Positions 4,183-38,748 of a DNA stretch of 39,310 nucleotides are shown in pieces; the stretch's first letter is position 1, and each line of letters opens with the position of its first letter. Under the pieces are notes generated by a model. That model searched no databases. It saw only the letters and a program-made list of their open reading frames with translations, and was not told the origin of the DNA. The position numbers and the translations under genes are program-made. The stretch lies in IMG/VR virus record IMGVR_UViG_3300013712_000001, positions 1 through 39,310 of that record. The stretch is one strand, 5' to 3'. The DNA is from a virus.

Positions 4183-7100
4183 TCAATTACCGCTTGCCAA
4201 GCCCCTAGCCACATCAGCGGCATTTCTTGGCTCTTGATCTTCATCAATTAAAACATCAGCAGCATAAGTAGCTGGGCGCTGTACCAGACTAAATGGAATG
4301 CCTGTAACAAATGTAGAAGCCTGGATTATTCCCTTGGTTAATGCAGAATAATCTACTTCCTTTTCCTCCTTGGTTGTATCAATAATCCGCTTGCCGGTTT
4401 TGGTCAGGTTTTCCATCATGCTAATTAATGGCGATACTGAATAACGGTCTGAATAAACAGTTGCATTAACGGAAGTTGTATAAATTGGATTGATGATTTC
4501 CCTTGCAAAAGGCAACATACCGAAAATCATTTCAGCCTGTGACTGAACGCCGATATTCACTAGATCAGCCTGCCAATCTTCTTCATCCTCATTATCAAAT
4601 AGTTCGCCGTTAAATGTGAGTGTAAGTGCTTTAGATAAGATTGCAGGCAAGGCCAGCATCATGCCATAAAGATAAGCGTATCTACCGTATTTTGCTGCAC
4701 CAGTTAGATTCTCATTGGCAAGCTTGGTCTGGGTAAAGAATGTATTGCTTACCATGTTGAACCAGCCGTAAAACATGAGCATAGCTCTTACTAATGGACT
4801 GCCACGCTCTACCGATGATATGCCTTCAGGTGTCATGTCGTTAAGGTACTGGCGAATAACACCATCGGCATACTTCACCGCCTGATCATCACCCAAGCCT
4901 CGAGTTAAAGCCTGGTTATATGCTGCATTCCATGAAATCACTTCTAAAGGAACTTGTAGTACCTGTTGAACAATATAAGCATTGTTCTTAATAAAATCTG
5001 ATCCACGCTTAACGATGCTTGGATTGATTGCTAGATTCTCTAGCTGATAGCGATACTCATTTGAAGTGTTATCAAGCCTGGTATCCATAAATGGTGATAA
5101 TTCCCGAACCTGTTTAGTCATGCTTTCAGAAGCAAATGCATTCGAGAAATATTTGGCCGATGATAAGGCCATATCTTTCGCATTTACTTCAACAAGGACT
5201 TGCGGAATTGAGGTCCATGCTTCAACTGCGTTTTTGAAGTTACCAGCCATTAGCACAATGCCTGAATTTCTTTTTAGATTTTCAACAATCCTGTCGCCTA
5301 GATTGGATGACGTTGGTTTATATGTCTGCTGTGTGGCAACTGCACTTAACCAGTCACCAAGGATATTTTTAACATACGGCGCTACAGATTCTAGTTCGCG
5401 GCGAAACTCCCGATTTCTAAGCAGGGAATCAACCTGTTTAACTTGCTGTTCCAAGTGAATATATCGAAGCTCTCGATCCAGGTGTAACGGTAACCTGGTT
5501 AAATCAAGAAGCAGAATATCCCCTTTATAGTTTGCGGCGCGTGACTTGGTGAAGTTTGCGCCAGTTGTAGCAGAAGCAATGTTGTCTTTTTCAAGATCAG
5601 CCCTGTTTTTTTCTGAACGAATGTCTGCTTCAGCAGAACGAATCGGATCATAATCAGCAGGAATATAGCCCCCCTTAAATGTGCCATAAGGTGTGATTAA
5701 TGGCTGTGAAGGTAATTCTTCAAAGTATCTACCGTTCATACGCTTATGGACCGCTTGCGCCTGTTTCTTGTAGCCTTCGAACATATCCCATATCCGCTGT
5801 ACGGCATCCATATCTTTTTTCGTAATAGTGCCATTGTTCATAGATTCAAGAAGGTAGGCATCCCATTTTGAAAAGTCTACTGTTCCATCCGGCAGTTCTT
5901 CACCCCATTTATAGCCGTAAACCAGACGTTGCTTGTTTGACAGATTTCCAGAATGCAATACAGCATGTAAAAGCTCTTGTTTTGAGTTAAACGTATGATC
6001 CAAGCTTTCCGCATAAATCTTACCTTCAGATTTGTCGAACTGCGTATAAATATCTAGCAATTCTTTCATCATGGCACGTTGCTCTATGCGGTACTGTGCC
6101 AATGATTCCTGAATAGGATTGAAGATATATTTATGAAAAACACCGGTAGGCTTACCACCATCCAACCACGTTACAAACTGTTCGGCACGGCGCAAACTTG
6201 CAATAAAGCTTTTAAACTGGCTGCCGACTTTTTGGATTGCCCTGTTTCCTGAACCTGGACCGTTATAGACACGCGAACGAACCGGCTTGGTATTTAACTG
6301 GCGAGTAAGATCATCAATAACAGCCTGTCGTTCTAGCTTCTCATTACCCAAAACAAATTTTTTAGTTTCCTTGGATAAGTGCCATATCTGGCGAATCGTA
6401 TCATCTATTACTTGGAAATCTTTATACTCAAGCTGTCTGTAGTCCTGAATATCAGGAAGATTGTCAATTAGGTCCTTTAATTCAGCCCATGCAATCGGAT
6501 CATACTCACGGATAGATTTAAGCTCATTGACAAAATTAGCCTGTCTATTTGATATGCCATAGGCAGCCAGAACATACCGAGCAATTGAAACATAGTTAAA
6601 GTCACGCGCTTTAGCTAGTCTTTCGTCTGAGCCATTAACTTTTTTCTCAAGCTCTTTTAACTTTCCAATCTGGTCCTGAATTGCATAAGCTTTTTTGGTT
6701 GAATGGAAATTAACAAGCTGATTTCGCTTGATCCTCACTGCTTCAGTAGTATCACCAGACTTCAAAGCTTTGTCATAAGCTCGAGCAAGTTTTAATTCAG
6801 TCGCAGAATATACCGAAGGCCGAATGTCTGAAATTATGGTGCTGTTAATTAGGTTGTTAGATATATCAATGGCCGCTTGATTCATTTCTGAATGTCGGCC
6901 TGATAATTTAGAAATTGCGGCCAGTTCACGGCTTAACATTTGTGCGCGTATGTCGTTATGTACGGCTTCATCAATTGCCTGCTCTACAGAAAGAGAATCG
7001 AACAATTCAGAATGTTCAGCCTGCACCAGATCAGCAGCACGTTCATCAATCAATTCTTTTGGCGCTGGCGCTTCAACCATTTCACGAATCATCTGATCAG

Positions 7101-10100
7101 CAGAAGTAAAGCCAAAACGCTCAGCAATCATTTCGGGATCATAACCATCTTTAGAAGTGAAGCCATATTTTCCGGCTTTCGGAATAGCCTTGTAAATTTC
7201 AGAATCTTCGCCGTATTTTGCCTTGAGCCATTCCAGATTTAACTTTGCTGCATCAGGAAATTGATCAATATCAGCCATGGCAATACTGTAATCATCGGCA
7301 TAATTTACTAATTCATAATCAGCATACATAGAGTAATGTTGAGCGCCTGATAGTGAATCAGTGAATAAATCTTCAAATTGCCTTGTATCAAATTTTCCTG
7401 ATTCATCTTTATCAAGATAACCATCTTCGGCCAGACGTTCAGCAACCGTTTCAATAGATAATCCATTCTTACGTGCAACTTTTTTAACACGGCCTACGTT
7501 TACTTTATAACTCTCTGGCTGATCAATACCCCAAGTAGATTCAATTTCAGCAGCATCTATGCCGCCCATTTTCGCTATAGCTTCGATCATGGTGTCACGC
7601 GAACGGTCAATCACGTTCGGATCACGCTTAACCTTCTCAACTGCTTCTACAGGCTGGCGTAAAAATGCCATTGCTTGATAAACTGGCATCTGTGCAACTT
7701 CTTTTGCTACCTTTTCACGCGCTTGCTGTCTGACACGTTTTGCCTGCTCATTAAATGCCTTGATGTGCTTGTTCCGCATATTGCGATACCAAGCTAAATC
7801 TTTTATTGTTTTCTGCTCAAGCTCATTGATTGCCGCTTCAGTTGCTTCAAGATGATTTTCTTGTATTTCCAGATATTCTTTAAATGGAATGCCAAGCTTT
7901 GTTGCTAGTTCTGGCGTAATCATCATTTCAAGATTGCGCTGACGTTGGACCTGATCAATAGCATCCTGACTTGCAAGCATACGATCCATTACCGCCGTAA
8001 TCTCAGGATTAAGATCAGCACGTTTGTTTATACCTAGGAAACGGCCCATGTTTTTATACACGGCGGCCATGAAGGAACGGAAACGCGAAAATACCTGTCG
8101 TAGTGCATTGCTAGGTGCTTTACCTGTAAACATATACTGCTCAAAAGTTTCCGCAAACTTTTCATGTACTTCGGTTTTTTGTTCAGGCGTTAATTTGTTC
8201 CAGCTTGATAAGTCATCAGGCAGATTAGCCCACTTTAAAACAGTATTCATATCTTGTTTAAGTTGCTCAGGTGCTTCAGGTGAGCGAGCAAAAGCCATAT
8301 TTAGCTCAAGAAAATGATGCCCCATTTCATGCGAGAAGGTAGAGAAATTGGCATTTTTACCCAGGATAATAACAGCGCCTTTTTTATCCTTTCTAAAAAT
8401 AATCTGGCCGCGTGTTTCATTTTCAAAGTTTTGGTTATAGGAATCCTGGGCATCCCGATACATTGCTTCGGAAACAGAAAAATCCTTATTCCTACCTTTG
8501 TTTTCTACAAAGCCATACCTTTTATAAAACTCTGTTAATCGTTTTTTATTGCCACCAAAATCAGAACTTGGCGTTAAGGAAATTCGCTTTTTATTAATAT
8601 CAGCATAATTAATAATTTCCTGCATAACCTTGCTGCCAATGCCTGAATTTCTAGCAGAAGCAGGAACAACTATTTTTGCAAGGTTAAGGTCGTTGCTACC
8701 AGTTATTGATAATTCAATATCATATTTATTTTTTAAATAATCCTTAAATTCTGATGTGGTTTTATTATAGTTATCATTTGACTGATTAAATGCTTCTGTA
8801 GCAGCTTCAGGATTCCCATCCATTCCCTGTATTAAGTTTTGTGCTTCAGCACGATCCGAAGCCAAACGAACAGGCATGGCATTGTATAAGTCACGCGCCG
8901 GAATTTTCATACGGTTGGCTAGTGTTTCGTAGAATGCCCCCACAAGAGTAGTGGCCTGCCGGTTAAAGTTATCACTAAAGCCATTTTTCAGATTTTTTAA
9001 GTCATCTGAAATAAGTTGTTCAACAGTAGCCAATTCATCTTGAGCCTGTCTAATTTGTGCATAAGTTTCGGTAATCTGCTTTACATCCTGCTTCATTTCT
9101 TCAGCAGTTTTTTTAATAGACAGTTCTGCTTCAATTGCAGTTGGAGCAAGAGGATCAGAACGAAGGTTATTCACAATATCCCGAAGTAATGGATCATTAT
9201 CTATCTTGTAAGACAATGACAGTAGTTCATCCAGAGGGATTCTAATAGTTCCATCAATATCTTCAACCTTGGTCCATTGCCGCGCCAGTTCAGGAGATAA
9301 TTCAAATAAATCCTCTAAGGGAACATTATATTTCTCTAGCGTCTGGTTAAATGATTCAATGTCAATATATGCAGCATCAACAGCACCACTATCCTGCTGA
9401 ACCTGGTTGATAAACTCCCTTAGTGTTTCTTCTGAGCGTCCTGCTGTTTTTGACTCCTTGACACGCTGAATCAGATTGCCGATAACACCAGAAAAATAGC
9501 CAGCCTTGGCGTTTTGATCATCTTCTTGCGCTGCCTTTTGTGCCAGTGCTGATTCAATCAATCCGCCTTCAATTTCTTCCATCAGGCGTTTTCTGCTGAT
9601 TGTTTCGCCCGCACCCACCGCAATCACTTCAGGTAATGCAGTAATGCCGCCTATAATCGCGTTTAAGGCTGCTTCACTTGGATTTAGTTCCTCACCTACC
9701 GCAGCAGCACCAGCCGCAGCAGAAGTATACCCTGACAGCGATTGTATGCCAGATTGACCTACCGCTGTTCTCAAGGCTGAGCCAAACTCAAGTGGCAAAA
9801 ATGCGCCGCCCAATCCAGAAATGCCAGCTTGAGCCAAGGAACGGCGCAAAGAGTATTCAATGGCATCACCCATTGACTTACCTTGATTGTACGCGCTTGA
9901 ATATTCAGCGCCGGCTGATCCTGCAAAATCTGTAGTAAAGCCGATAGTAGCGCCCTGAATAGCGCCGCCTGCACCACTGGCAAAACGTGACAAGCGAACC
10001 GGATCAACCACTTCACCAGCCCGACTAGCTAGAGCGCCAGCACGACCAGCAACAAAACGCTCAGCAGCAGCGCCGGCAGTTGCGCGAGCCGCAGCGCCAG

Positions 10101-11028
10101 AACCGAAGCCAAGGGCAAGTGATGGTACAGTTTCAGCCAGAACCTCCCCCAAGTCACCAGCAGAACCATTAGACGCAATATATTTAACCGCAGCCCAAAA
10201 ACTGCTATCTCCTTGCTGTTCTGCCTGCTTTCCTGCAAAGTCTGCACCTTGCATCAAGTTATTCAGGCTGTCACTTGTTCCATATTTTTCTTTTTTCAGT
10301 TCCTCCATTGCCATAAATAATTTATTGGTAGTCGGCTGAAGGGATGAATTAATTGGAGTGCCTACAGTATCACCGCCTAGAGCTTCGGCAGTTCGCTCAA
10401 AGCCTAGATAACCAACATCGTGCAGCAAGGCTACTGTCTGATAAATATTGGCTGCACCGCGTTTCACGGCGTTGGTATAGCGATTCCCCTGTTCATTAAC
10501 TGGTTCGATACGCTGTTCAGGTATTTTAGGCAAATTAAGCGAGCGATTACTTTGTGAAGTAGTAATTAATGATTGCGCCGTATCAATAGCATAAGGCTTA
10601 TTTTTCTTGGTTTTGGTTTCTTGGTATTTTTTTGCAAGATTGGCATTCTTTGGAGCAATCTTAGGCACAATGCTTAAAATTCTATCTTCAAGCTCGGCAT
10701 TGGATAGGGATTTAAAGTTTAATGCCCCAACACCTGTACCAATCGCACCCAGGTTATCAGCATCATCAAAGACCAGCTTTGCTTTTGTTTCATCCTGAAT
10801 AAAAGGATTTAATACTTCCTGATTTCTGTTAAATGACTTCTGTACTTTTGCCAGTTCTTCTTTTCTTTTTAGTTCCTGTTCATCCCATAGCGATACTTCA
10901 GGATCAAACTGAAAATCTTTAATAAACTTTTGACGCAATGCAGCGTCATCAGCAATTTGAGTAGGGCTTTTATTTTCTGCTGATTCAAAAATTTCAGCAA
11001 CCGAAAGCGGATTATTATTGATAGGCAT
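4183..11028 (-). CDS. Giant (2281 aa) internal virion / DNA-ejection protein of the polyvalent type, with GNAT-like and zincin (HEMGH) modules
   Basis: Occupies the T7 gp16 position. Gly/Ala-rich hydrophobic region around aa 290-480. GNAT motif-A-like ARNSGIGSKVMQEII...LTEFYKRYGFVE (nt ~8450-8700). HEMGHH at nt 8314-8331 (aa ~900). Hydrophobic helices near the C-terminus. Confidence 0.8.
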   Translation of the reverse strand: MPINNNPLSVAEIFESAENKSPTQIADDAALRQKFIKDFQFDPEVSLWDEQELKRKEELAKVQKSFNRNQEVLNPFIQDETKAKLVFDDADNLGAIGTGVGALNFKSLSNAELEDRILSIVPKIAPKNANLAKKYQETKTKKNKPYAIDTAQSLITTSQSNRSLNLPKIPEQRIEPVNEQGNRYTNAVKRGAANIYQTVALLHDVGYLGFERTAEALGGDTVGTPINSSLQPTTNKLFMAMEELKKEKYGTSDSLNNLMQGADFAGKQAEQQGDSSFWAAVKYIASNGSAGDLGEVLAETVPSLALGFGSGAAARATAGAAAERFVAGRAGALASRAGEVVDPVRLSRFASGAGGAIQGATIGFTTDFAGSAGAEYSSAYNQGKSMGDAIEYSLRRSLAQAGISGLGGAFLPLEFGSALRTAVGQSGIQSLSGYTSAAAGAAAVGEELNPSEAALNAIIGGITALPEVIAVGAGETISRKRLMEEIEGGLIESALAQKAAQEDDQNAKAGYFSGVIGNLIQRVKESKTAGRSEETLREFINQVQQDSGAVDAAYIDIESFNQTLEKYNVPLEDLFELSPELARQWTKVEDIDGTIRIPLDELLSLSYKIDNDPLLRDIVNNLRSDPLAPTAIEAELSIKKTAEEMKQDVKQITETYAQIRQAQDELATVEQLISDDLKNLKNGFSDNFNRQATTLVGAFYETLANRMKIPARDLYNAMPVRLASDRAEAQNLIQGMDGNPEAATEAFNQSNDNYNKTTSEFKDYLKNKYDIELSITGSNDLNLAKIVVPASARNSGIGSKVMQEIINYADINKKRISLTPSSDFGGNKKRLTEFYKRYGFVENKGRNKDFSVSEAMYRDAQDSYNQNFENETRGQIIFRKDKKGAVIILGKNANFSTFSHEMGHHFLELNMAFARSPEAPEQLKQDMNTVLKWANLPDDLSSWNKLTPEQKTEVHEKFAETFEQYMFTGKAPSNALRQVFSRFRSFMAAVYKNMGRFLGINKRADLNPEITAVMDRMLASQDAIDQVQRQRNLEMMITPELATKLGIPFKEYLEIQENHLEATEAAINELEQKTIKDLAWYRNMRNKHIKAFNEQAKRVRQQAREKVAKEVAQMPVYQAMAFLRQPVEAVEKVKRDPNVIDRSRDTMIEAIAKMGGIDAAEIESTWGIDQPESYKVNVGRVKKVARKNGLSIETVAERLAEDGYLDKDESGKFDTRQFEDLFTDSLSGAQHYSMYADYELVNYADDYSIAMADIDQFPDAAKLNLEWLKAKYGEDSEIYKAIPKAGKYGFTSKDGYDPEMIAERFGFTSADQMIREMVEAPAPKELIDERAADLVQAEHSELFDSLSVEQAIDEAVHNDIRAQMLSRELAAISKLSGRHSEMNQAAIDISNNLINSTIISDIRPSVYSATELKLARAYDKALKSGDTTEAVRIKRNQLVNFHSTKKAYAIQDQIGKLKELEKKVNGSDERLAKARDFNYVSIARYVLAAYGISNRQANFVNELKSIREYDPIAWAELKDLIDNLPDIQDYRQLEYKDFQVIDDTIRQIWHLSKETKKFVLGNEKLERQAVIDDLTRQLNTKPVRSRVYNGPGSGNRAIQKVGSQFKSFIASLRRAEQFVTWLDGGKPTGVFHKYIFNPIQESLAQYRIEQRAMMKELLDIYTQFDKSEGKIYAESLDHTFNSKQELLHAVLHSGNLSNKQRLVYGYKWGEELPDGTVDFSKWDAYLLESMNNGTITKKDMDAVQRIWDMFEGYKKQAQAVHKRMNGRYFEELPSQPLITPYGTFKGGYIPADYDPIRSAEADIRSEKNRADLEKDNIASATTGANFTKSRAANYKGDILLLDLTRLPLHLDRELRYIHLEQQVKQVDSLLRNREFRRELESVAPYVKNILGDWLSAVATQQTYKPTSSNLGDRIVENLKRNSGIVLMAGNFKNAVEAWTSIPQVLVEVNAKDMALSSAKYFSNAFASESMTKQVRELSPFMDTRLDNTSNEYRYQLENLAINPSIVKRGSDFIKNNAYIVQQVLQVPLEVISWNAAYNQALTRGLGDDQAVKYADGVIRQYLNDMTPEGISSVERGSPLVRAMLMFYGWFNMVSNTFFTQTKLANENLTGAAKYGRYAYLYGMMLALPAILSKALTLTFNGELFDNEDEEDWQADLVNIGVQSQAEMIFGMLPFAREIINPIYTTSVNATVYSDRYSVSPLISMMENLTKTGKRIIDTTKEEKEVDYSALTKGIIQASTFVTGIPFSLVQRPATYAADVLIDEDQEPRNAADVARGLASGN

Positions 11029-25895: not shown

Positions 25896-26342
25896 TTAAT
25901 AATGCCCATGAATCAACATACCAGCATCACGTTTTTCCTGGTTTGTTTTTACTGATTCCGGCCATTTGGTCATTCTGCAAAATTCCTCATGGTTCTTTTT
26001 TGAAGCATAAGGCTTAACAGCAATATAAGAGATATTTAAGCGCTGTAATGCTTTTTCTATCTGCTGCCCTACAGAATGATTTCTACCAACATCATAAGCA
26101 TTTTTTTGTCTAGTAAGACTATTTTTATTTTTCCCTTCATGCCAGTTAGACTTTTTAATCAACCAGGAAGCTTCAAGATACACCTTCTTAATTACAGAAC
26201 GGTTTTCTAAAAAGAAATCGTAAAGATCAAATAAATCCATACACTCAAGCCTTACTACCTTTCCATTCATACCGAATGCAACTCCAGATTTATCTATATC
26301 AGGATCAATACCCATGATAAATGATAGATCACTACTGCTCAT
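25896..26342 (-). CDS. RuvC-like Holliday junction resolvase (RNase H fold)
   Basis: 148 aa. FIMGIDPDIDKSGVAF (first catalytic Asp), KVYLEAS (Glu) and the C-terminal EKRDAGML are consistent with phage RuvC-type resolvases. Confidence 0.65.
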   Translation of the reverse strand: MSSSDLSFIMGIDPDIDKSGVAFGMNGKVVRLECMDLFDLYDFFLENRSVIKKVYLEASWLIKKSNWHEGKNKNSLTRQKNAYDVGRNHSVGQQIEKALQRLNISYIAVKPYASKKNHEEFCRMTKWPESVKTNQEKRDAGMLIHGHY

Positions 26343-26674
26343 GTGGCCTCCTGTGCTTCGCCAAAAATATCAGGTACATTTTCAACTTTTCCAAGTTGTA
26401 TCGAATAACATAAATATTTGTTTAACTTTTCTATTTTGTTAATTTTCGCGGCACAATCTTCTTTAAAGCCAAACTGTGCCCAGCTATTCAATTCATCAAC
26501 CACAGCAAGAAGATCATTTAATTCCAAATGAATGCGCTCTTTATTATTCAGCGGTAGATCAGGATGTTTTTCTGTCATCCCAAATTGAGCTGTTTTAAGA
26601 GCAATCTGAGCAATTTCACTTGCTTCTTCAGCAAGCTTCATTAGTAGGAATTGTTCATGTGTCATTTTATTCAT
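26339..26674 (-). CDS. MazG-like all-alpha NTP pyrophosphohydrolase
   Basis: 111 aa. KLAEEASEIAQ ... ERIHLELNDLLAVVDEL matches the EExxE ... ExxD metal-binding helix pattern of the MazG family. Confidence 0.6.
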   Translation of the reverse strand: MNKMTHEQFLLMKLAEEASEIAQIALKTAQFGMTEKHPDLPLNNKERIHLELNDLLAVVDELNSWAQFGFKEDCAAKINKIEKLNKYLCYSIQLGKVENVPDIFGEAQEAT

Positions 26675-30091: not shown

Positions 30092-30841
30092 TTATTTTGC
30101 TACTGTTCTGGCATCAGTCCAGTTAAACCGAACAACACTATCACCGCCTTGGTTTAATCTGGACCATAAGCGCGAGCCTAAATCATCTTGAAGTTTTTCT
30201 TCGCTTAGATTTGAAATAAGAATCGTAGGTCGTTCAAGGTCGTAACGCTGATACATGACTTTATGAACCTGATCCGTTTTTTTATCCCGATCATGCAGGC
30301 CGTATTCATCTATCACCAGAAGATCATAATCCGCATATCTGGCAATCACAGATTGTTCATCATCACCATTGCGCCCCCATGCGCTCATAAGCTCGTTTGC
30401 AAGGTCAAAGCTAGTGATGTACCTAGCAGACTTAAAATTGCGTAATACGGCGCGAATGACAGCGCAGGAGAGGTGTGTTTTCCCTGTGCCTGTCGTGCCG
30501 CATAAAATCAGGCTAGAATTTCCACCATTAACAACCTGTTCAGCAAAATCCACGCATTTCTTTACTGCTGTTTGCTGTGCGACATGATCAACCTTAAAGG
30601 TCTGGAATTTACAGTTCACATGACGACTAGGCATCATTGAAGCTACAACACGATTCCTAATAAGCCGTTCACTTAAAGACTGGCTATGCTCCTCCTCATT
30701 TTTCTTCATAAATTCTTCAGAACATTTTTCACAGGTAAGGCGGCCAAGAACGGAAAGCATGTTGGTGTTATGTACAGGGCATACCTTATTGGTTTTCTGG
30801 ATTGCAAAACGTAACGGATTAGGTGCAGGCTTAGTATTCAT
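30092..30841 (-). CDS. DnaC/IstB-like AAA+ helicase loader with an N-terminal zinc ribbon
   Basis: Walker A LILCGTTGTGKTHL and Walker B DLLVIDEYG. N-terminal CPVH...CEKC. Directly downstream of the initiator gene (TAATG overlap). Confidence 0.8.
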   Translation of the reverse strand: MNTKPAPNPLRFAIQKTNKVCPVHNTNMLSVLGRLTCEKCSEEFMKKNEEEHSQSLSERLIRNRVVASMMPSRHVNCKFQTFKVDHVAQQTAVKKCVDFAEQVVNGGNSSLILCGTTGTGKTHLSCAVIRAVLRNFKSARYITSFDLANELMSAWGRNGDDEQSVIARYADYDLLVIDEYGLHDRDKKTDQVHKVMYQRYDLERPTILISNLSEEKLQDDLGSRLWSRLNQGGDSVVRFNWTDARTVAK

Positions 30842-31623
30842 TATTCAAAATTCCTATAGTCTAGTTGATCAGTAGCCGGCTGATAGGCTTCATCAGGAAG
30901 CGGCTGCCAGTGCTGGTTCACATTTCTGTCGTTAATCAAGCTATCTGCTCTTATTTCATCTTCCCAGCGTTCGCCGTTAATCCAGGTAGAAGCCATTGGC
31001 ACATATCGTCCATTTTCTTTCTGCCAGTCAAAAGACTGCTTTTGTTTTTCAAGGAAAGCTATGATCTTCTCAAATGGATTTTTCTTGAAATCAATTTTAT
31101 GAAACTTCTGTTCAGCACGTTTTTTATCTTTCTTGTTAGGGTAAGCTTTCCAGAAAATCTCAAACTGTTCTGCACGTAAGTTAGTGTCTTTTGATTTAGT
31201 GTTTTTTGATAGTGTATTTTGTGGGTAAAAATTCTTTACTAGCAGTAGTAAAATTTTTTTACTAGGGTAGTAAAAATTCTTTACTAGTAAAAATTTTTTA
31301 CTAGGGAATTTTAGCTTGATTCCTGATATATCAAATGCTGTATTTATTGCATAAGTATTGCCGTAAATAGTCGGAGGAAGCTCCACGATTAAGCCAAGCT
31401 CAATCAACTCATTAATACACTTTATAACCGTTGGCCGGCTTTTCTTTGATAACGATTCAAACTGTGTTAATGAAATAGAATCTTGATCTTTCCACCAGCC
31501 GCGAGTTTTCCGAAGTATGAGCATGTACAGCTTAAAAGCTGCATCACTCATTTCAGGCATTAATTCATCAATTACCACGTTAGGTACTTGGAGAAAATTT
31601 GGCTCTGGTATTCTTTTGCTCAT
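30841..31623 (-). CDS. Replication initiator / replisome organiser (lambda O-like architecture)
   Basis: 260 aa. N-terminal winged-helix-like region (AAFKLYMLILRKTRGW..., VIKCINELIELGLI) and C-terminal FEIFWKAYPNKKDKKRAEQKF motif. Iterons are embedded in the linker-coding part. Confidence 0.7.
   Translation of the reverse strand: MSKRIPEPNFLQVPNVVIDELMPEMSDAAFKLYMLILRKTRGWWKDQDSISLTQFESLSKKSRPTVIKCINELIELGLIVELPPTIYGNTYAINTAFDISGIKLKFPSKKFLLVKNFYYPSKKILLLLVKNFYPQNTLSKNTKSKDTNLRAEQFEIFWKAYPNKKDKKRAEQKFHKIDFKKNPFEKIIAFLEKQKQSFDWQKENGRYVPMASTWINGERWEDEIRADSLINDRNVNQHWQPLPDEAYQPATDQLDYRNFE
31225..31304. repeat. Four ~18-bp iterons (GTAAAAWTTYTTTACTAG): candidate origin of replication inside the initiator gene
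   Basis: Copies at 31225-31242, 31248-31265, 31270-31287 and 31288-31304. Each is an internal dyad (GTAAA...TTTAC). They translate to the repeated LVKNFY peptide. Confidence 0.7.
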
Positions 31624-31952: not shown

Positions 31953-31956
31953 AAAA

Positions 31957-31972
31957 ACTCCCCGAAGGGAGT
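31957..31972 (-). terminator. Rho-independent terminator after the clamp-like gene (ACUCCC-UUCG-GGGAGU followed by U8)
   Basis: Perfect 6-bp stem, UUCG tetraloop and an 8-U tail on the minus strand. Confidence 0.8.
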
Positions 31973-31986
31973 TATAAAATCACAAA

Positions 31987-32580
31987 CTAGAAACGCATAG
32001 GCATAACAAGGCCGTGATAACGATCATCACCAAGAGGGAAATACATAACTTCATTTGATCCGTTAAACAGAACATTGATGCCACCTATTTTACTGCCTGT
32101 TAAAATCTGCTTAACCTTAGCCATTGTTTTTAAGTAGTCAATCTGGAACATTGGCGCAACATTCTGGCTTTCTTCTGGAATTTTCAAGACACGCATCACA
32201 TCAGGAAATTTTCCATCTATTGGATTAAAAACCTCATAAGCACTTGTGCGATCTGTCTTAATTGACATGATGTATGAATTATCACTAACCGTATCGCCTT
32301 TAATCTTTTCTATTGCCACCATATCTGATAAAGAGTGCTTAGCTCCAACTTTCTTCATGAGCCACAGTATTTCATCACGCGGTATAATCATTTCAGGAAT
32401 ATCCTTTAAATTTTCATCCTGGATAATTACAGCGCAATAGCCATTTGTTCCGGCAACTATACCGTTGCCAATTTTCACACCCATCAGATAAAAACGAACA
32501 TCATTTACCGCAGTAACTTGCACACATGCAGCCAGATAGTTATAAGGAACTTCAATGATTGTATTTTCTTGATTAGCCAT
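31987..32580 (-). CDS. Truncated DNA polymerase III beta sliding-clamp (DnaN) homologue: domain II plus a shortened domain III
   Basis: 197 aa from ATG 32580 (SD GGTGA 5 nt upstream). DVRFYLMGV, GTNGYCAV, MIIPRDEILWLMKKV, IDGKFPDVMRVL and the C-terminal GLVMPMRF align with E. coli beta DVRYYLNGM, ATDGHRLAV, VIVPRKGVIELMRML, VDGRFPDYRRVL and YVVMPMRL (from memory). Confidence 0.8.
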   Translation of the reverse strand: MANQENTIIEVPYNYLAACVQVTAVNDVRFYLMGVKIGNGIVAGTNGYCAVIIQDENLKDIPEMIIPRDEILWLMKKVGAKHSLSDMVAIEKIKGDTVSDNSYIMSIKTDRTSAYEVFNPIDGKFPDVMRVLKIPEESQNVAPMFQIDYLKTMAKVKQILTGSKIGGINVLFNGSNEVMYFPLGDDRYHGLVMPMRF

Positions 32581-32594
32581 ATTTTTCACCTTGA

Positions 32595-32750
32595 TTAAAT
32601 TAGTTTGTATCGAACAGTGGTAGCGTTATTAATTACAGCAACAAGCCTGAATTTCTGGCCTTGCCACTCAACTTCAGGACGATGAAACCAGACTTCTTCT
32701 TGTCCTAAAATATTCTCGTCATGGTCCAGATAGACCGCAGTAAAATTCAT
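32595..32750 (-). CDS. Unlisted small ORF (51 aa)
   Basis: The ATG follows the upstream TAA directly, with SD GAGGGA ~7 nt upstream. It fills an otherwise unexplained 160-nt gap. Product: MNFTAVYLDHDENILGQEEVWFHRPEVEWQGQKFRLVAVINNATTVRYKLI. Confidence 0.55.
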   Translation of the reverse strand: MNFTAVYLDHDENILGQEEVWFHRPEVEWQGQKFRLVAVINNATTVRYKLI

Positions 32751-33677
32751 TTATTTTCCCTCATTTTTAGCCAGGAACGCTTTGTATATTTCTGGATAGT
32801 CAGGATTAGATTCCTTGATGAAAACGCCATTAAATAATAAACCCTTACGATCCTTAATTTCGTTGTAAGAGAATTTAAGACACTCACTCAGGTTTACATT
32901 GTAGTGGTCCGCAATCAGTGCAAGCCAAACCATGCATGACTTGAAATAGTTTGTTAGTCGGACCTTGTAAGTAATCTGGTCGTCTGTATGGCCTTTTTCT
33001 TCTGCATTCTTGTATAAATGCGCCGAAAGACAGAACTGGCTTAACTCAATTTGGTAATTCAAAAACATTTCTTCAGGTGTAGTAATACGTTTTTTAAAAG
33101 TGTCATCACTGTTAATAATAAATGCACGTTCAATATCGTCGAACTGCTGAACATATAGCGGATTAAAGCGGATACCACACATACCCAATATGATTGTTAT
33201 CACCACCATATTATCTCCAATGTCATCCGCTACAACTGGCAATGATTGACCTGCATTAATGACAGAAGCTTGGCCGCTACCAATATTGTCTGAAAGCTCG
33301 CCAGATTCAGAAAATAATTTCATAGCCTGTTTAATCGGGCTTGATCCATCTACAATATTTCGATCCTCAGCCCACTTTAAAACCGAGTTAGGCAAAACAG
33401 GATCAATACTCAAAACGCTTTTAGACATGATTAAATGCTCTACTGTTAAAAAATTAGAATGGTCCACAGCATTAATTTTCAAGCCGCAGACTTCGCCGAT
33501 TGAATCACCGCTCAAACATGCTTGCGCTGACAAAAAGTAATTCACCATATTGCACTCTAGCGCCCATTTTCTTAGCTGGTGCAACTGGATTTTTCCGAGA
33601 TTTACCGCATTGGGCGAAACGGCATGGCTGCATGAATATGCATAAGCAGCCTGCTCAATCTGTTGAATAATATTCAT
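32751..33677 (-). CDS. Two-domain protein: unknown N-terminal domain plus a MazG-like NTP pyrophosphohydrolase C-terminal domain
   Basis: 308 aa. KWAEDRNI..., KLFSESGELSDNI, VADDIGDNMVVITIILGMCG and ECLKFSYNEIKDRKG follow the phage MazG-like pattern (F..R...KL.EE.GEL...D.IGD..V.L..., aYneIkdRkG). Confidence 0.65.
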   Translation of the reverse strand: MNIIQQIEQAAYAYSCSHAVSPNAVNLGKIQLHQLRKWALECNMVNYFLSAQACLSGDSIGEVCGLKINAVDHSNFLTVEHLIMSKSVLSIDPVLPNSVLKWAEDRNIVDGSSPIKQAMKLFSESGELSDNIGSGQASVINAGQSLPVVADDIGDNMVVITIILGMCGIRFNPLYVQQFDDIERAFIINSDDTFKKRITTPEEMFLNYQIELSQFCLSAHLYKNAEEKGHTDDQITYKVRLTNYFKSCMVWLALIADHYNVNLSECLKFSYNEIKDRKGLLFNGVFIKESNPDYPEIYKAFLAKNEGK

Positions 33678-33688
33678 ATTGTCACCTG

Positions 33689-34273
33689 TTAAAATGGTAA
33701 ATCTAAAGTAACAAGAGAATCCTTTGCACTAACAAGGCATACTTCGTTAAAGCATTCGGCAATTTTTGTATTTGGATAAGGTGAGAACCAGACCTGTTTT
33801 TCTTCATCAAACTGCATACGCTCGGTACTTGACACAAATATTTTATTGTTGTGCATAAACTTTGCAGTAGCCCAAGCTGGGTAACTATTACCCCTGTAAA
33901 AAACAGGATTTATATCTGGATTCCCTTCAGGATAAATGCAGCTAACATTATATTTATCCTCAATGAGAATTTTATATTTAGCAGGGGTATCATTATCAAA
34001 GTATGAAAACAGCACACAACCTGAATTATTTACTTCAATCTCACATAATCCATGAGGATCAGAAAGGTCCTTAATTTTCGCAGTACGCGTACTTTTATTA
34101 ATTTCGCTGCGTCTTTCATCAAGTTCTTCATAAAAAGCAGCAGCAGAAGCAATACAGCCATTCGCAATTTTTTTTGAATTTACAGCACCGCCAAGCTTTT
34201 CAGCATGTTCAATATACAAACGCTTTGCTAAATCTTCCACTTTGGCATCCCAAAGAAAGTTAGGGTTATGCAT
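33689..34273 (-). CDS. Hypothetical protein (194 aa)
   Basis: ORF with an ATGCATAA overlap to the upstream gene. No recognisable motif. Confidence 0.55.
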   Translation of the reverse strand: MHNPNFLWDAKVEDLAKRLYIEHAEKLGGAVNSKKIANGCIASAAAFYEELDERRSEINKSTRTAKIKDLSDPHGLCEIEVNNSGCVLFSYFDNDTPAKYKILIEDKYNVSCIYPEGNPDINPVFYRGNSYPAWATAKFMHNNKIFVSSTERMQFDEEKQVWFSPYPNTKIAECFNEVCLVSAKDSLVTLDLPF

Positions 34274-37736: not shown

Positions 37737-38257
37737 TGAAAAATGAAATCAGCTTTGAGGAATCGGCGGCAAAAGTTGTATCAATGCTTGAGCCGCGAAT
37801 GCAGACATTAAGTGTTGAGCTTTGCTCACTTAATATTGTTCAGTGCTTTGGACGTATTGCAGAAACAATTAAAAGTGAAAACCCATCTACTGATCTGGTC
37901 CAGTTGATGTTAGGCCGTATCTTGATTAATACAATTGCTCAAGCACTGGCATCGAACGGAATTGCTGCCGAAGCTTACAAGCTTACCAATGAGCGCGTAT
38001 TGTCCTTTGGTGGAGCAGTCACAGGATTAATGCAATCAACCTTCTGCCAGTACCGCTCTCATGCGGCAAGCCATGATTTAGAAAAAATGGTCCAAGGCTT
38101 GAACCCAATGACTGAAGAACAGTTTAAGGCAATCAGTCATGAGCGCGCCGAATCACTAGCCAATCTTTACCAGTCGCTTAGAACTATATCGCTTGAATTC
38201 AATCTAAGCCTTGAAGAATGCATTACCTACGCACTAGAAGAAGGAATAAAAATATGA
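37736..38257 (+). CDS. Hypothetical all-helical protein (173 aa)
   Basis: ORF translationally coupled on both sides. No catalytic motif recognised. Confidence 0.55.
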
Positions 38258-38748
38258 GAGGTGTGAACCGCGTAATTTTAATTGGCACGTTAGGGAAAGA
38301 CCCTGAAAGCAAAACCTTTCCGAACGGCGGCCAGATATGTACTTTCAGCATTGCTACTAACGATAGCTGGACTGATAAAAATACAGGGGAGCGTAAAACT
38401 TCTACGGAATGGCATAGGATTGTTTTGAATGGGAAGGTTGCTGAAATTGCACAGCAGTATGCCAGAAAGGGTAATCATGTTTATGTCGAAGGATCAATTA
38501 AGACCCGACAATATACGGATCAAAACGGTATGGAGCGAAGTGTTACGGAAATAAACTGTGTAAATTTTCAGCTTCTTGATAGCCCAAACCAGAACCAGCA
38601 GGCAGATAATCATAACCAGCAAGGCAGAAGCTACGGCGGCAATGGTGGAAATATAGGGCAATACGGCCAGTATGATAAGCACTCTAATGATCATGGCTCT
38701 TTCTCAAACAATGGTTATCAATATAATCCAGGCTTTACCAGCCGATAA
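38254..38748 (+). CDS. ssb: Single-stranded DNA-binding protein (OB fold) lacking the canonical acidic C-terminal tip
   Basis: [18 protein letters not shown]...[37 protein letters not shown] is a classical bacterial-type SSB core. ATG 38254 overlaps the upstream stop (ATGA). The Gly/Gln/Asn-rich tail ends ...NPGFTSR. Confidence 0.9.

Follow-up and report, generated by a model that had tools for sequence, protein, structure and literature searches.

A phage protein family built from one and a half domains of the bacterial beta sliding clamp

What use a bacteriophage might have for half of a sliding clamp is the question raised by a small gene in the IMG/VR virus record IMGVR_UViG_3300013712_000001. 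The record, a contig of 39,310 bp with a GC content of 39.8%, was analysed over its entire length and is referred to below as the window; its nearest characterised relative is Acinetobacter phage Ab9. An initial annotation, made from the sequence alone, had described the 197-amino-acid (aa) product of this gene, hereafter the half-clamp, as a homologue of the bacterial beta sliding clamp (DnaN) comprising domain II and the end of domain III but no domain I, in a phage that encodes no polymerase. A PCNA-like trimeric ring, a partner that heterodimerises with the host clamp and a decoy for proteins carrying clamp-binding motifs had been proposed as possible roles. We report here that the half-clamp belongs to a large family of similarly short proteins which are homologous to the beta clamp, which lack both sides of its dimer interface and in which the predicted peptide-binding pocket is the best-conserved feature.

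Homology and domain content of the half-clamp

Taken alone, the half-clamp sequence gave only a marginal match to clamps, with E=0.017 for the A. baumannii beta clamp 6ap4 in a phmmer search of PDB sequences and E=4e-5 for PHROG 947, labelled 'processivity factor'. It had no match in a Pfam scan and none to the NCBIfam model TIGR00663, on which relatives scored 20-53 bits over profile positions 121-255 only; the curated equivalog cut-off of this model, 137.65 bits, was reached neither by the half-clamp nor by the relatives scored. The PADLOC models of anti-phage defence and anti-defence systems yielded only a sub-threshold methyltransferase fragment for the half-clamp (E=0.002) and nothing for three relatives. 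Because these single-sequence scans were uninformative, the family had to be built first. A hidden Markov model of the query and six homologues was searched against 1.84 billion cluster representatives and matched 1933 of them at E<=1e-3 and 168 at E<=1e-10; the roughly 1,900 matching clusters may include some cellular full-length clamps. From these searches 154 relatives were collected, consisting of 50%-identity representatives and close homologues, and the family profile was made from an alignment of 72 members (alignment A2) that were picked partly by their C-terminal motif.

The A2 profile matched E. coli beta in the PDB with E=3e-26, together with 45 other clamp sequences, and this result was reproduced locally. 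The E. coli beta sequence used is 100% identical to the product of the genomic dnaN gene and its numbering fits the residues named in the literature; all sequences returned by a genome scan for diverse DnaN proteins, from which a clamp profile could have been built, shared at least 93% identity with E. coli beta. The five sequence blocks on which the initial annotation had based its assignment all lie in register with E. coli beta in the HMMER alignments, residues 27-35, 44-51, 64-78, 121-132 and 191-197 falling on beta 150-158, 171-178, 193-207, 237-248 and 360-366, respectively. Overall identity is only about 15-25% to cellular clamps and 23-52% to the phage relatives found by tblastn, the Ab9 protein being the one at 52%.

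Structure prediction led to the same fold. A first AlphaFold2 model, computed from 7 sequences, reached a mean predicted local distance difference test score (pLDDT) of 68 and gave noisy fold matches, the top 17 of which in the PDB were beta clamps; as its confidence was only moderate, it was superseded by a model computed from the 72-sequence alignment, which is compact and has a pLDDT of 93.8 and a predicted template modelling (TM) score of 0.90. Foldseek searches of the PDB with the latter returned 170 matches at E<=1e-3, and the 50 listed were all beta clamps (E=6e-10 to 3e-8, query-normalised TM scores 0.59-0.68). No non-clamp fold emerged, and in the BFVD many phage proteins of about 160-270 aa matched the model with comparable TM scores. 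Once the relatives are included, homology of the window gene product to the beta sliding clamp, as first proposed, is unambiguous.

The model contains ten strands and three long helices, equal to one full domain plus one half-domain. Its secondary structure (E, strand; H, helix) runs E9-12, H13-20, E34-38, E41-45 and E49-54 in a first unit, E64-67, H68-78, E87-92, E103-108 and E113-118 in a second, and H148-161, E179-182 and E188-192 in the half-domain. Pfam PF02767 (DNA_pol3_beta_2) was matched individually by 54 of the 72 aligned members (best E 8e-17), and those whose coordinates were inspected covered most or all of the profile. PF02768 (DNA_pol3_beta_3) was found in just four of the 72. 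In P0090, the only one of these that was inspected, the match covers the final 50 positions of this profile, as positions 11-116 of the 116 in PF02767 are followed there by positions 72-121 only of the 121 in PF02768. PF00712 was matched by neither the query nor any of the 72 relatives.

With the A2 profile, residues 9-132 align to beta 137-248, that is, to domain II and the linker that follows it, whereas the residues after these can be placed by HMMER either on beta 252-301 or on beta 314-365. The former would make the tail the first half of domain III, with I159/L160 placed on I272/L273. It was rejected on the scores of a sub-profile of residues 136-197, which came to 23.4 bits for beta 310-366 and to 4.0 bits for beta 250-313, and on the PF02768 coordinates in P0090; without the last strand the score against beta 310-366 was 7.5 bits, a small margin over 4.0 bits. 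The tail was therefore assigned to the second half of domain III. Foldseek alignments of about 260-278 columns for the 197-residue query agree with a net deletion of about 58 residues together with small insertions. The absent parts are domain I (beta 1-125) and beta ~250-313, and the domain content first described can be sharpened to a full domain II and the second half of domain III. A tblastn search of the whole window with E. coli beta revealed no remnant of domain I.

This truncation is conserved. Among the collected relatives, 149 of 154 are 172-246 aa long, as are nearly all of the best 150, with the same ends, and the closest relatives of the half-clamp measure 188-214 aa. Mean column identity across the family is about 22%, with the key residues invariant.

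Loss of the dimer interface and conservation of the pocket

The residues that form the beta dimer interface are I78, F106, I272 and L273, with R103, E298 and E304 (PMC11139829, a 2024 review). All of them fall within the absent segments, so that both sides of the canonical interface are missing, domain I having been lost on one side and beta ~250-313 on the other. The pocket in which beta binds peptides is made of subsite I (R152, L155, T172, G174, H175, R176, L177, P242, R246, V247, V360 and M362) and subsite II (H175, N320, Y323, V344, M362, P363, M364 and R365) (PMC11139829). The stretches aligned with these residues, listed in Table 1, are kept. In E. coli beta, removal of the final five residues abolishes the clefts (PMC2685083).

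In A2, 14 columns are at least 90% conserved and nine of these are pocket equivalents. Since members of A2 had been picked partly by their C-terminal motif, which partly guarantees the M362, P363 and near-conserved R365 columns, the counts were repeated without selection, on the query and all 154 collected relatives, and these 155 sequences give the unbiased figure. The equivalents of R152, G174 and P242 are each present in 154 of the 155. They are followed by L155 (147), M362 (144), P363 (142), T172 (141, with S in a further 10), H175 (133), Y323 (129), R365 (126, with K in 12), R246 (121, with K in 24) and N320 (102, with D in 26 and Q in 10), and the equivalent of Y154 is a tyrosine in 146. 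By alignment, 13 pocket-residue equivalents are thus retained in 102-154 of 155 sequences, and the predicted pocket for clamp-binding motifs comprises the best-conserved positions of the family. Judged in this way, the half-clamp is clamp-derived and retains the contiguous domain II and second-half-III stretch that would carry the hydrophobic pocket.

In fold, pocket residues and terminal hhMPMR strand, the half-clamp resembles the beta clamps (DnaN; E. coli 1MMI/2POL, A. baumannii 6AP4). In contrast to them it has 197 aa instead of about 366, is without domain I and the first half of domain III, and cannot form the six-domain dimeric ring. Of the features by which DnaN is recognised, three domains, a score above the TIGR00663 cut-off and the head-to-tail interface are lacking, whereas the pocket residues are present by alignment.

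Possible roles of the half-clamp

We tentatively favour, at somewhat less than even chances, the view that the half-clamp is a soluble pocket module that would bind peptides of the clamp-binding type early in infection, as a decoy or as an adaptor. It would be made early, as the product of the last gene of a short early operon, and would serve as a free-standing receptor for QLxLF or QLxLxF peptides. It might capture proteins of host replication or repair whose normal docking site is the host clamp, or else a phage partner with such a tail, and the clients would be either withdrawn from the host clamp (decoy) or brought to the phage DNA (adaptor). Peptide binding by the pocket, its partners, the oligomeric state and the consequence for infection are what we infer here. 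A receptor or decoy role for proteins with clamp-binding motifs, the last of the roles initially proposed, would fit the strong conservation of the putative pocket. The best functional analogy is the engineered monomeric beta (I272A/L273A), an open clamp that still presents its pocket, although this is a laboratory mutant with three domains whereas the half-clamp is a natural and conserved truncation. As monomeric beta binds the clamp-loader subunit delta about 50 times tighter than the dimer does (PMC11139829), a free pocket module can compete effectively.

Several points weigh against such a role. The phage depends on the host Pol III, and a decoy that drew away Pol III alpha or delta without discrimination would be harmful to its own replication. 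When a half-domain lacks its other half, a hydrophobic core is normally exposed, and this speaks for an oligomer or a partner of some kind. The same conservation of pocket residues would be displayed by a true ring clamp. A scan of all window proteins found the strict clamp-binding motif in none of them. The window protein itself departs from beta in its pocket at H175 (Y), R176 (C), L177 (A) and N320 (Q), so that its specificity may differ from that of beta; H175 is kept in its close relatives P0001 (92% identical) and L094. Finally, semi-conserved K/R residues occur on all three helices (49% at position 17, 69% at 76, 80% at 155 and 48% at 158). They hint at a retained DNA-facing surface, which would fit a DNA-bound assembly better than a pure decoy.

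The same helix residues can be read as signs of a true DNA clamp of non-canonical build, made of four 90-degree protomers of three half-domains each or of a two-copy half-ring, that would tether an enzyme through the pocket. This seems rather unlikely to us, even though the arithmetic holds, as four times 1.5 domains make six domains, or twelve half-domains as in the normal ring, and the surface with which the half-domain packs on its other half in beta should be exposed. The position of the window gene next to the initiator/loader operon, and that of the member in L011 two genes from PolA in a replication module, speak for it as well. A four-copy ring would be closed by two true two-fold contacts, one between half-III and half-III' and one between the free edge of domain II and its twin. 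The clamp fold is said to have an internal pseudo-two-fold symmetry (Kong et al. 1992), which makes like-with-like contacts geometrically conceivable. We regard as improbable the specific form of a D2-symmetric four-copy ring of twelve half-domains with pockets on both faces, and no known clamp is so built. What counts against a clamp of this sort is that no dedicated loader is encoded, that the canonical interface residues are gone and that the gene is often an isolated accessory gene far from replication genes (Cato, Bcep781, Anchaing); moreover, no T7-like or Pol I-type phage polymerase is known to use a beta-type clamp. The PCNA-like trimeric ring proposed at the outset is disfavoured, as it needs two full domains and the model has 1.5. 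The gp45 protein has 228 aa. PCNA and T4/RB69 gp45 do share small subunits and beta-alpha-beta-beta-beta units with the half-clamp, but they have two complete domains (about 16 strands and four helices) against one and a half (ten strands and three helices), and the sequence affinity of the half-clamp is to bacterial beta rather than to either of them. PCNA structures gave weak matches to the 7-sequence model (E>=6e-3) and were not among the 50 best of the confident model.

Co-assembly with the host beta, as a mixed ring or a capped open clamp that would poison or retarget the host clamp, is very unlikely in our view. It draws on common ancestry and on the best single-sequence PDB match being the clamp of Acinetobacter baumannii, and phages do target the host clamp with other proteins (Staphylococcus phages Twort and G1). 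The heterodimer suggested initially is nevertheless disfavoured by the absence of domain I and of the I272/L273/E298/E304 region, which leaves both native interface partners missing (I78, R103 and F106 on one side; I272, L273, E298 and E304 on the other). The low identity to cellular clamps makes a recent dominant-negative form unlikely, and the half-clamp itself lacks a clamp-binding motif through which it could dock on host beta. We give hardly any weight to a decayed, functionless fragment of a full-length phage dnaN, in spite of the first annotation of Bcep781 gp15 as 'DNA Pol III b subunit fragment' and of the failure of Pfam to detect the window protein. The short length and the ends are shared by nearly all of the best 150 matches, key residues are invariant against the low mean column identity, the model is confident and compact, the Shine-Dalgarno sequence, start codon and terminator are intact, and tblastn with E. 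coli beta detected no remnant of the absent parts in the window; a pseudogene, which the initial annotation had considered, is excluded as far as sequence data allow. Least credible of all is a RusA-like Holliday junction resolvase. This is the label of PHROG 3007, which the half-clamp matches over its full length (E=7e-31; residues 8-196 on profile positions 2-185 of 190), and it has been propagated to the GenBank records PP763254 (Ab9), NC_054891 (Anchaing), PQ850630 (Bas81), NC_004333 (Bcep781), PV764598, PP580404 and NC_070824, PhiXhv-5, XM1 and C7 being among the phages so labelled; other records say 'Pol III beta subunit'. The RusA family of Pfam (PF05866) was matched by neither the query nor the 72 relatives, Bcep781 has a separate gp22 annotated as Holliday junction resolvase (Rus) and the window has a resolvase candidate of its own at 25896..26342. 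As profile and fold both identify a beta-clamp derivative, the label is wrong.

The soluble pocket module that we favour can also be set beside proteins acting on the host clamp. Twort gp168, G1 ORF240 and SocB, which are phage and toxin proteins, target the pocket of the host clamp. Another phage protein, MuC of phage Mu, recruits the clamp (PMC12867686). Like these four, the half-clamp would act in the network of clamp-client contacts during infection or stress; they bind the host clamp and have the motif or a mimic of it, whereas the half-clamp would do the reverse and, as a copy of the pocket, bind the clients. From the short 'Pol III beta' proteins of phages and mobile elements, which are of the same family or of the same fold and size, it does not differ in kind.

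The beta pocket is a hub that organises bacterial polymerases, mismatch repair, Hda and the clamp loader, and is an antibiotic target. Here a widespread phage family, of up to about 1,900 clusters, retains it on a minimal scaffold. The family is large and uncharacterised, and is made of DnaN parts yet lies outside the definitions of both DnaN and PCNA/gp45. It would be a natural tool to rewire or titrate the clients of the host clamp, could serve structural and inhibitor work as a minimal pocket domain, and offers a test case for the reduction of clamp domains in evolution. The present result also corrects the resolvase label that annotation pipelines have spread through phage records.

Gene context and distribution of the family

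Table 1. Positions of the half-clamp gene, its parts and its neighbours in the window.
Feature	Coordinates	Strand	Remarks
Half-clamp coding sequence	31987..32580	(-)	197 aa; stop codon 31987-31989; open reading frame (ORF) call plus ATG with Shine-Dalgarno sequence
Domain II equivalent and II-III linker	32185..32580	(-)	residues 1-132; two beta-alpha-beta-beta-beta units; conserved linker IDGKFPDVMRVL
DVRFYLMG	32479..32502	(-)	residues 27-34 = beta D150-G157; holds predicted pocket R152, L155
GTNGY	32437..32451	(-)	residues 44-48 = beta A171-H175; predicted pocket T172, G174; Y48 in place of H175
PDVMRV	32188..32205	(-)	residues 126-131 = beta P242-V247; predicted subsite I
Half-domain (second half of beta domain III, ~beta 314-366)	31990..32184	(-)	residues 133-197; ends LVMPMRF
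FQIDY	32134..32148	(-)	residues 145-149 = beta F319-Y323; predicted subsite II N320, Y323
LVMPMRF	31990..32010	(-)	residues 191-197 = beta V360-L366; predicted pocket V360, M362, P363, M364, R365
Intrinsic terminator-like hairpin	31973..31956	(-)	AACTCCCTTCGGGGAGTT then T run; 13 nt past the half-clamp stop
Replication operon	30092..31623	(-)	downstream, separately transcribed; preceded by the half-clamp terminator
O-like initiator	30841..31623	(-)	PHROG 18020 at 4e-39; Pfam Phage_rep_O
DnaC-like helicase loader	30092..30841	(-)	PHROG 50 at 1e-58
51-aa ORF	32595..32750	(-)	directly upstream of half-clamp; stop 14 nt before half-clamp ATG
MazG-like pyrophosphatase gene	32751..33677	(-)	308 aa; PHROG 1992 at 2e-41; between protein A and 51-aa ORF
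Protein A	33689..34273	(-)	194 aa; same early operon; candidate pocket ligand

The full ORF of the half-clamp extends over 31987..32589 on the minus strand, and the ATG at 32580 yields the 197-aa product. Read from the sequence, this ATG is preceded by an AAGGTG Shine-Dalgarno sequence with a spacer of 6 nt; an alternative start, the GTG at 32589, falls within the AAGGTG. Both features of the neighbourhood singled out in the initial annotation were borne out. The gene has its own terminator, with a hairpin of 7-bp stem (4 G-C pairs) followed by TTTTTTT, and the operon downstream is that of the initiator and loader, whose assignments are supported by PHROG matches. The transcription unit of the latter also encodes a 62-aa ORF.

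Scans of the window with PHROG and Pfam recovered terminase, portal-like, capsid, tail, internal virion and lysis genes, as well as HNH, resolvase, MazG-like, exonuclease and single-stranded DNA-binding protein (SSB) genes. No DNA polymerase was found in these scans among the ORFs of the 39.3-kb contig large enough to encode one. The earlier statement that no polymerase is present therefore holds for this contig but not for the family, since Bcep781, AH2 and L011 have one.

The half-clamp belongs to a small clade of Acinetobacter phages (Ab9-like) with an operon context of its own. In the window, Ab9, L007, L008, L094 and L095, a small ORF is followed in turn by protein A, the MazG-like gene (only in the window and in L094), the 51-aa ORF, the half-clamp and the initiator operon; the MazG-like gene is absent in Ab9, L007, L008 and L095. 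The MazG-like protein of the window has an N-terminal extension of about 95 residues without profile match, and a second NTP pyrophosphohydrolase gene lies at 26339..26674. The 51-aa ORF occupies the same position in Ab9, L007, L008, L094 and L095 with 35-53% identity and gave no family match. The idea that it supplies the missing half-domain in trans was judged unlikely, as its sequence appears by eye to be all-beta and free of helices.

Protein A, encoded one or two genes upstream of the half-clamp and in the same operon in every relative, has 13 homologues counting that of the window, among them L001:5252-5821, L007:5190-5816, L008:1-693, L094:5001-5555 and L095:5001-5651. Their overall identity is 23-67%, and they share an invariant ...SL[VI][ST]x[DG]LPF-COOH end and a common HTYP[ADE]W; in the window the last 12 residues are AKDSLVTLDLPF. 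The LPF-COOH end has the form of an SSB tip; the Ab9 SSB ends in SLDDDLPF, and the tip of the host SSB is DDDIPF. LPF is also compatible with the final three positions of the hexameric clamp-binding motif, of which QLSLPL in Hda is an example (PMC11139829). The tail of protein A is thus a possible ligand of the half-clamp pocket. The pocket may have been retargeted to this tail or to SSB-type tips, which would make the two proteins a phage-private clamp-client pair, orthogonal to the host. Co-occurrence was sought beyond the close relatives, and protein A proved to be confined to the Ab9-like clade, so that linkage by descent is inseparable from functional linkage.

Two further candidate motifs were set aside. 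The PolA of L011 (L011:2415-4481) starts MQLELFLDLET, in which QLELF agrees perfectly with the QLxLF consensus; this agreement is probably fortuitous, as the stretch belongs to a conserved Exo I strand that reads EHLLFLDFE in the Pol I of Bcep781. The C-terminal aromatic residues of the O-like initiators (...QLDYRNFE in the window, ...FNYFDN in L007, ...FSFFK in L008 and ...ARFGN in Ab9) are too loose to be taken as a motif.

The SSBs of the clade (window 38218..38748 (+), L094:437-931, L095:1677-2144 and L007:1800-2294) end in ...GYxYNPGF(TS)R without the acidic DDDLPF tip, which the Ab9 SSB keeps. As listed, the window SSB ORF appears to begin about 12 codons too far upstream, the likely true start being MRGVN....

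Beyond the Acinetobacter clade, named relatives of 175-240 aa include Bcep781 gp15, AH2 gp20, BcepNazgul gp21, Obolenskvirus Cato_36 and one in Pantoea LIET2. The gp20 of Burkholderia phage AH2 has 209 aa and the phage has its own polymerase (PMC3483164), and Frankia integrative elements (AICE) carry a gene with only the central clamp domain, DNA_pol3_beta_2 (PMC3218068). Locations vary widely. The member of Obolenskvirus Cato, a phage without polymerase, lies between tube-initiator and baseplate genes; that of Bcep781, which has a Pol I, has head genes on either side and runs on the opposite strand; in Anchaing, a T7-like phage of Ralstonia, it is the gene nearest one genome end; it follows a ParB-like gene in Bas81 and adjoins Dam and SSB genes in Vibrio phage PVP-XSN. 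The half-clamp gene thus has the behaviour of a mobile accessory or early gene. Annotations of short 'Pol III beta' genes in phage genomes go back to Bcep781, and a literature search for short phage clamps found no account of their architecture and no functional study.

Some relatives in the BFVD are long enough for two full clamp domains, namely A0A6J5PNH4 (250 aa), G9FGZ4 of Rhodococcus phage REQ2 (266 aa) and A0A0A0RQG5 of Escherichia phage Seurat (246 aa), and phage clamps appear to come in three-, approximately two- and one-and-a-half-domain sizes. The clamps of Seurat-like phages are encoded in the vicinity of genes for 7-deazaguanine modification (PMC7472734). Tails of at least 7 residues past the MPxR strand (mostly 7-39, and above 70 in three) are present in about 60 of the 154 relatives. 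At least 15 of the tailed relatives carry P[ADE]W[FLVAY], similar to the YP[ADE]W of protein A, which could be a self-binding or clamp-binding linear motif; P0073, P0079, P0088, P0093, P0094, P0100, P0108, P0118, P0121, P0129, P0139, P0143 and P0149 are among the tailed proteins.

Elsewhere in the window, a 2281-aa ORF at 4183..11028 (-), which matches phrog_9880 and lies among the internal virion protein genes, contains a weak GNAT acetyltransferase-like stretch at residues ~780-860.

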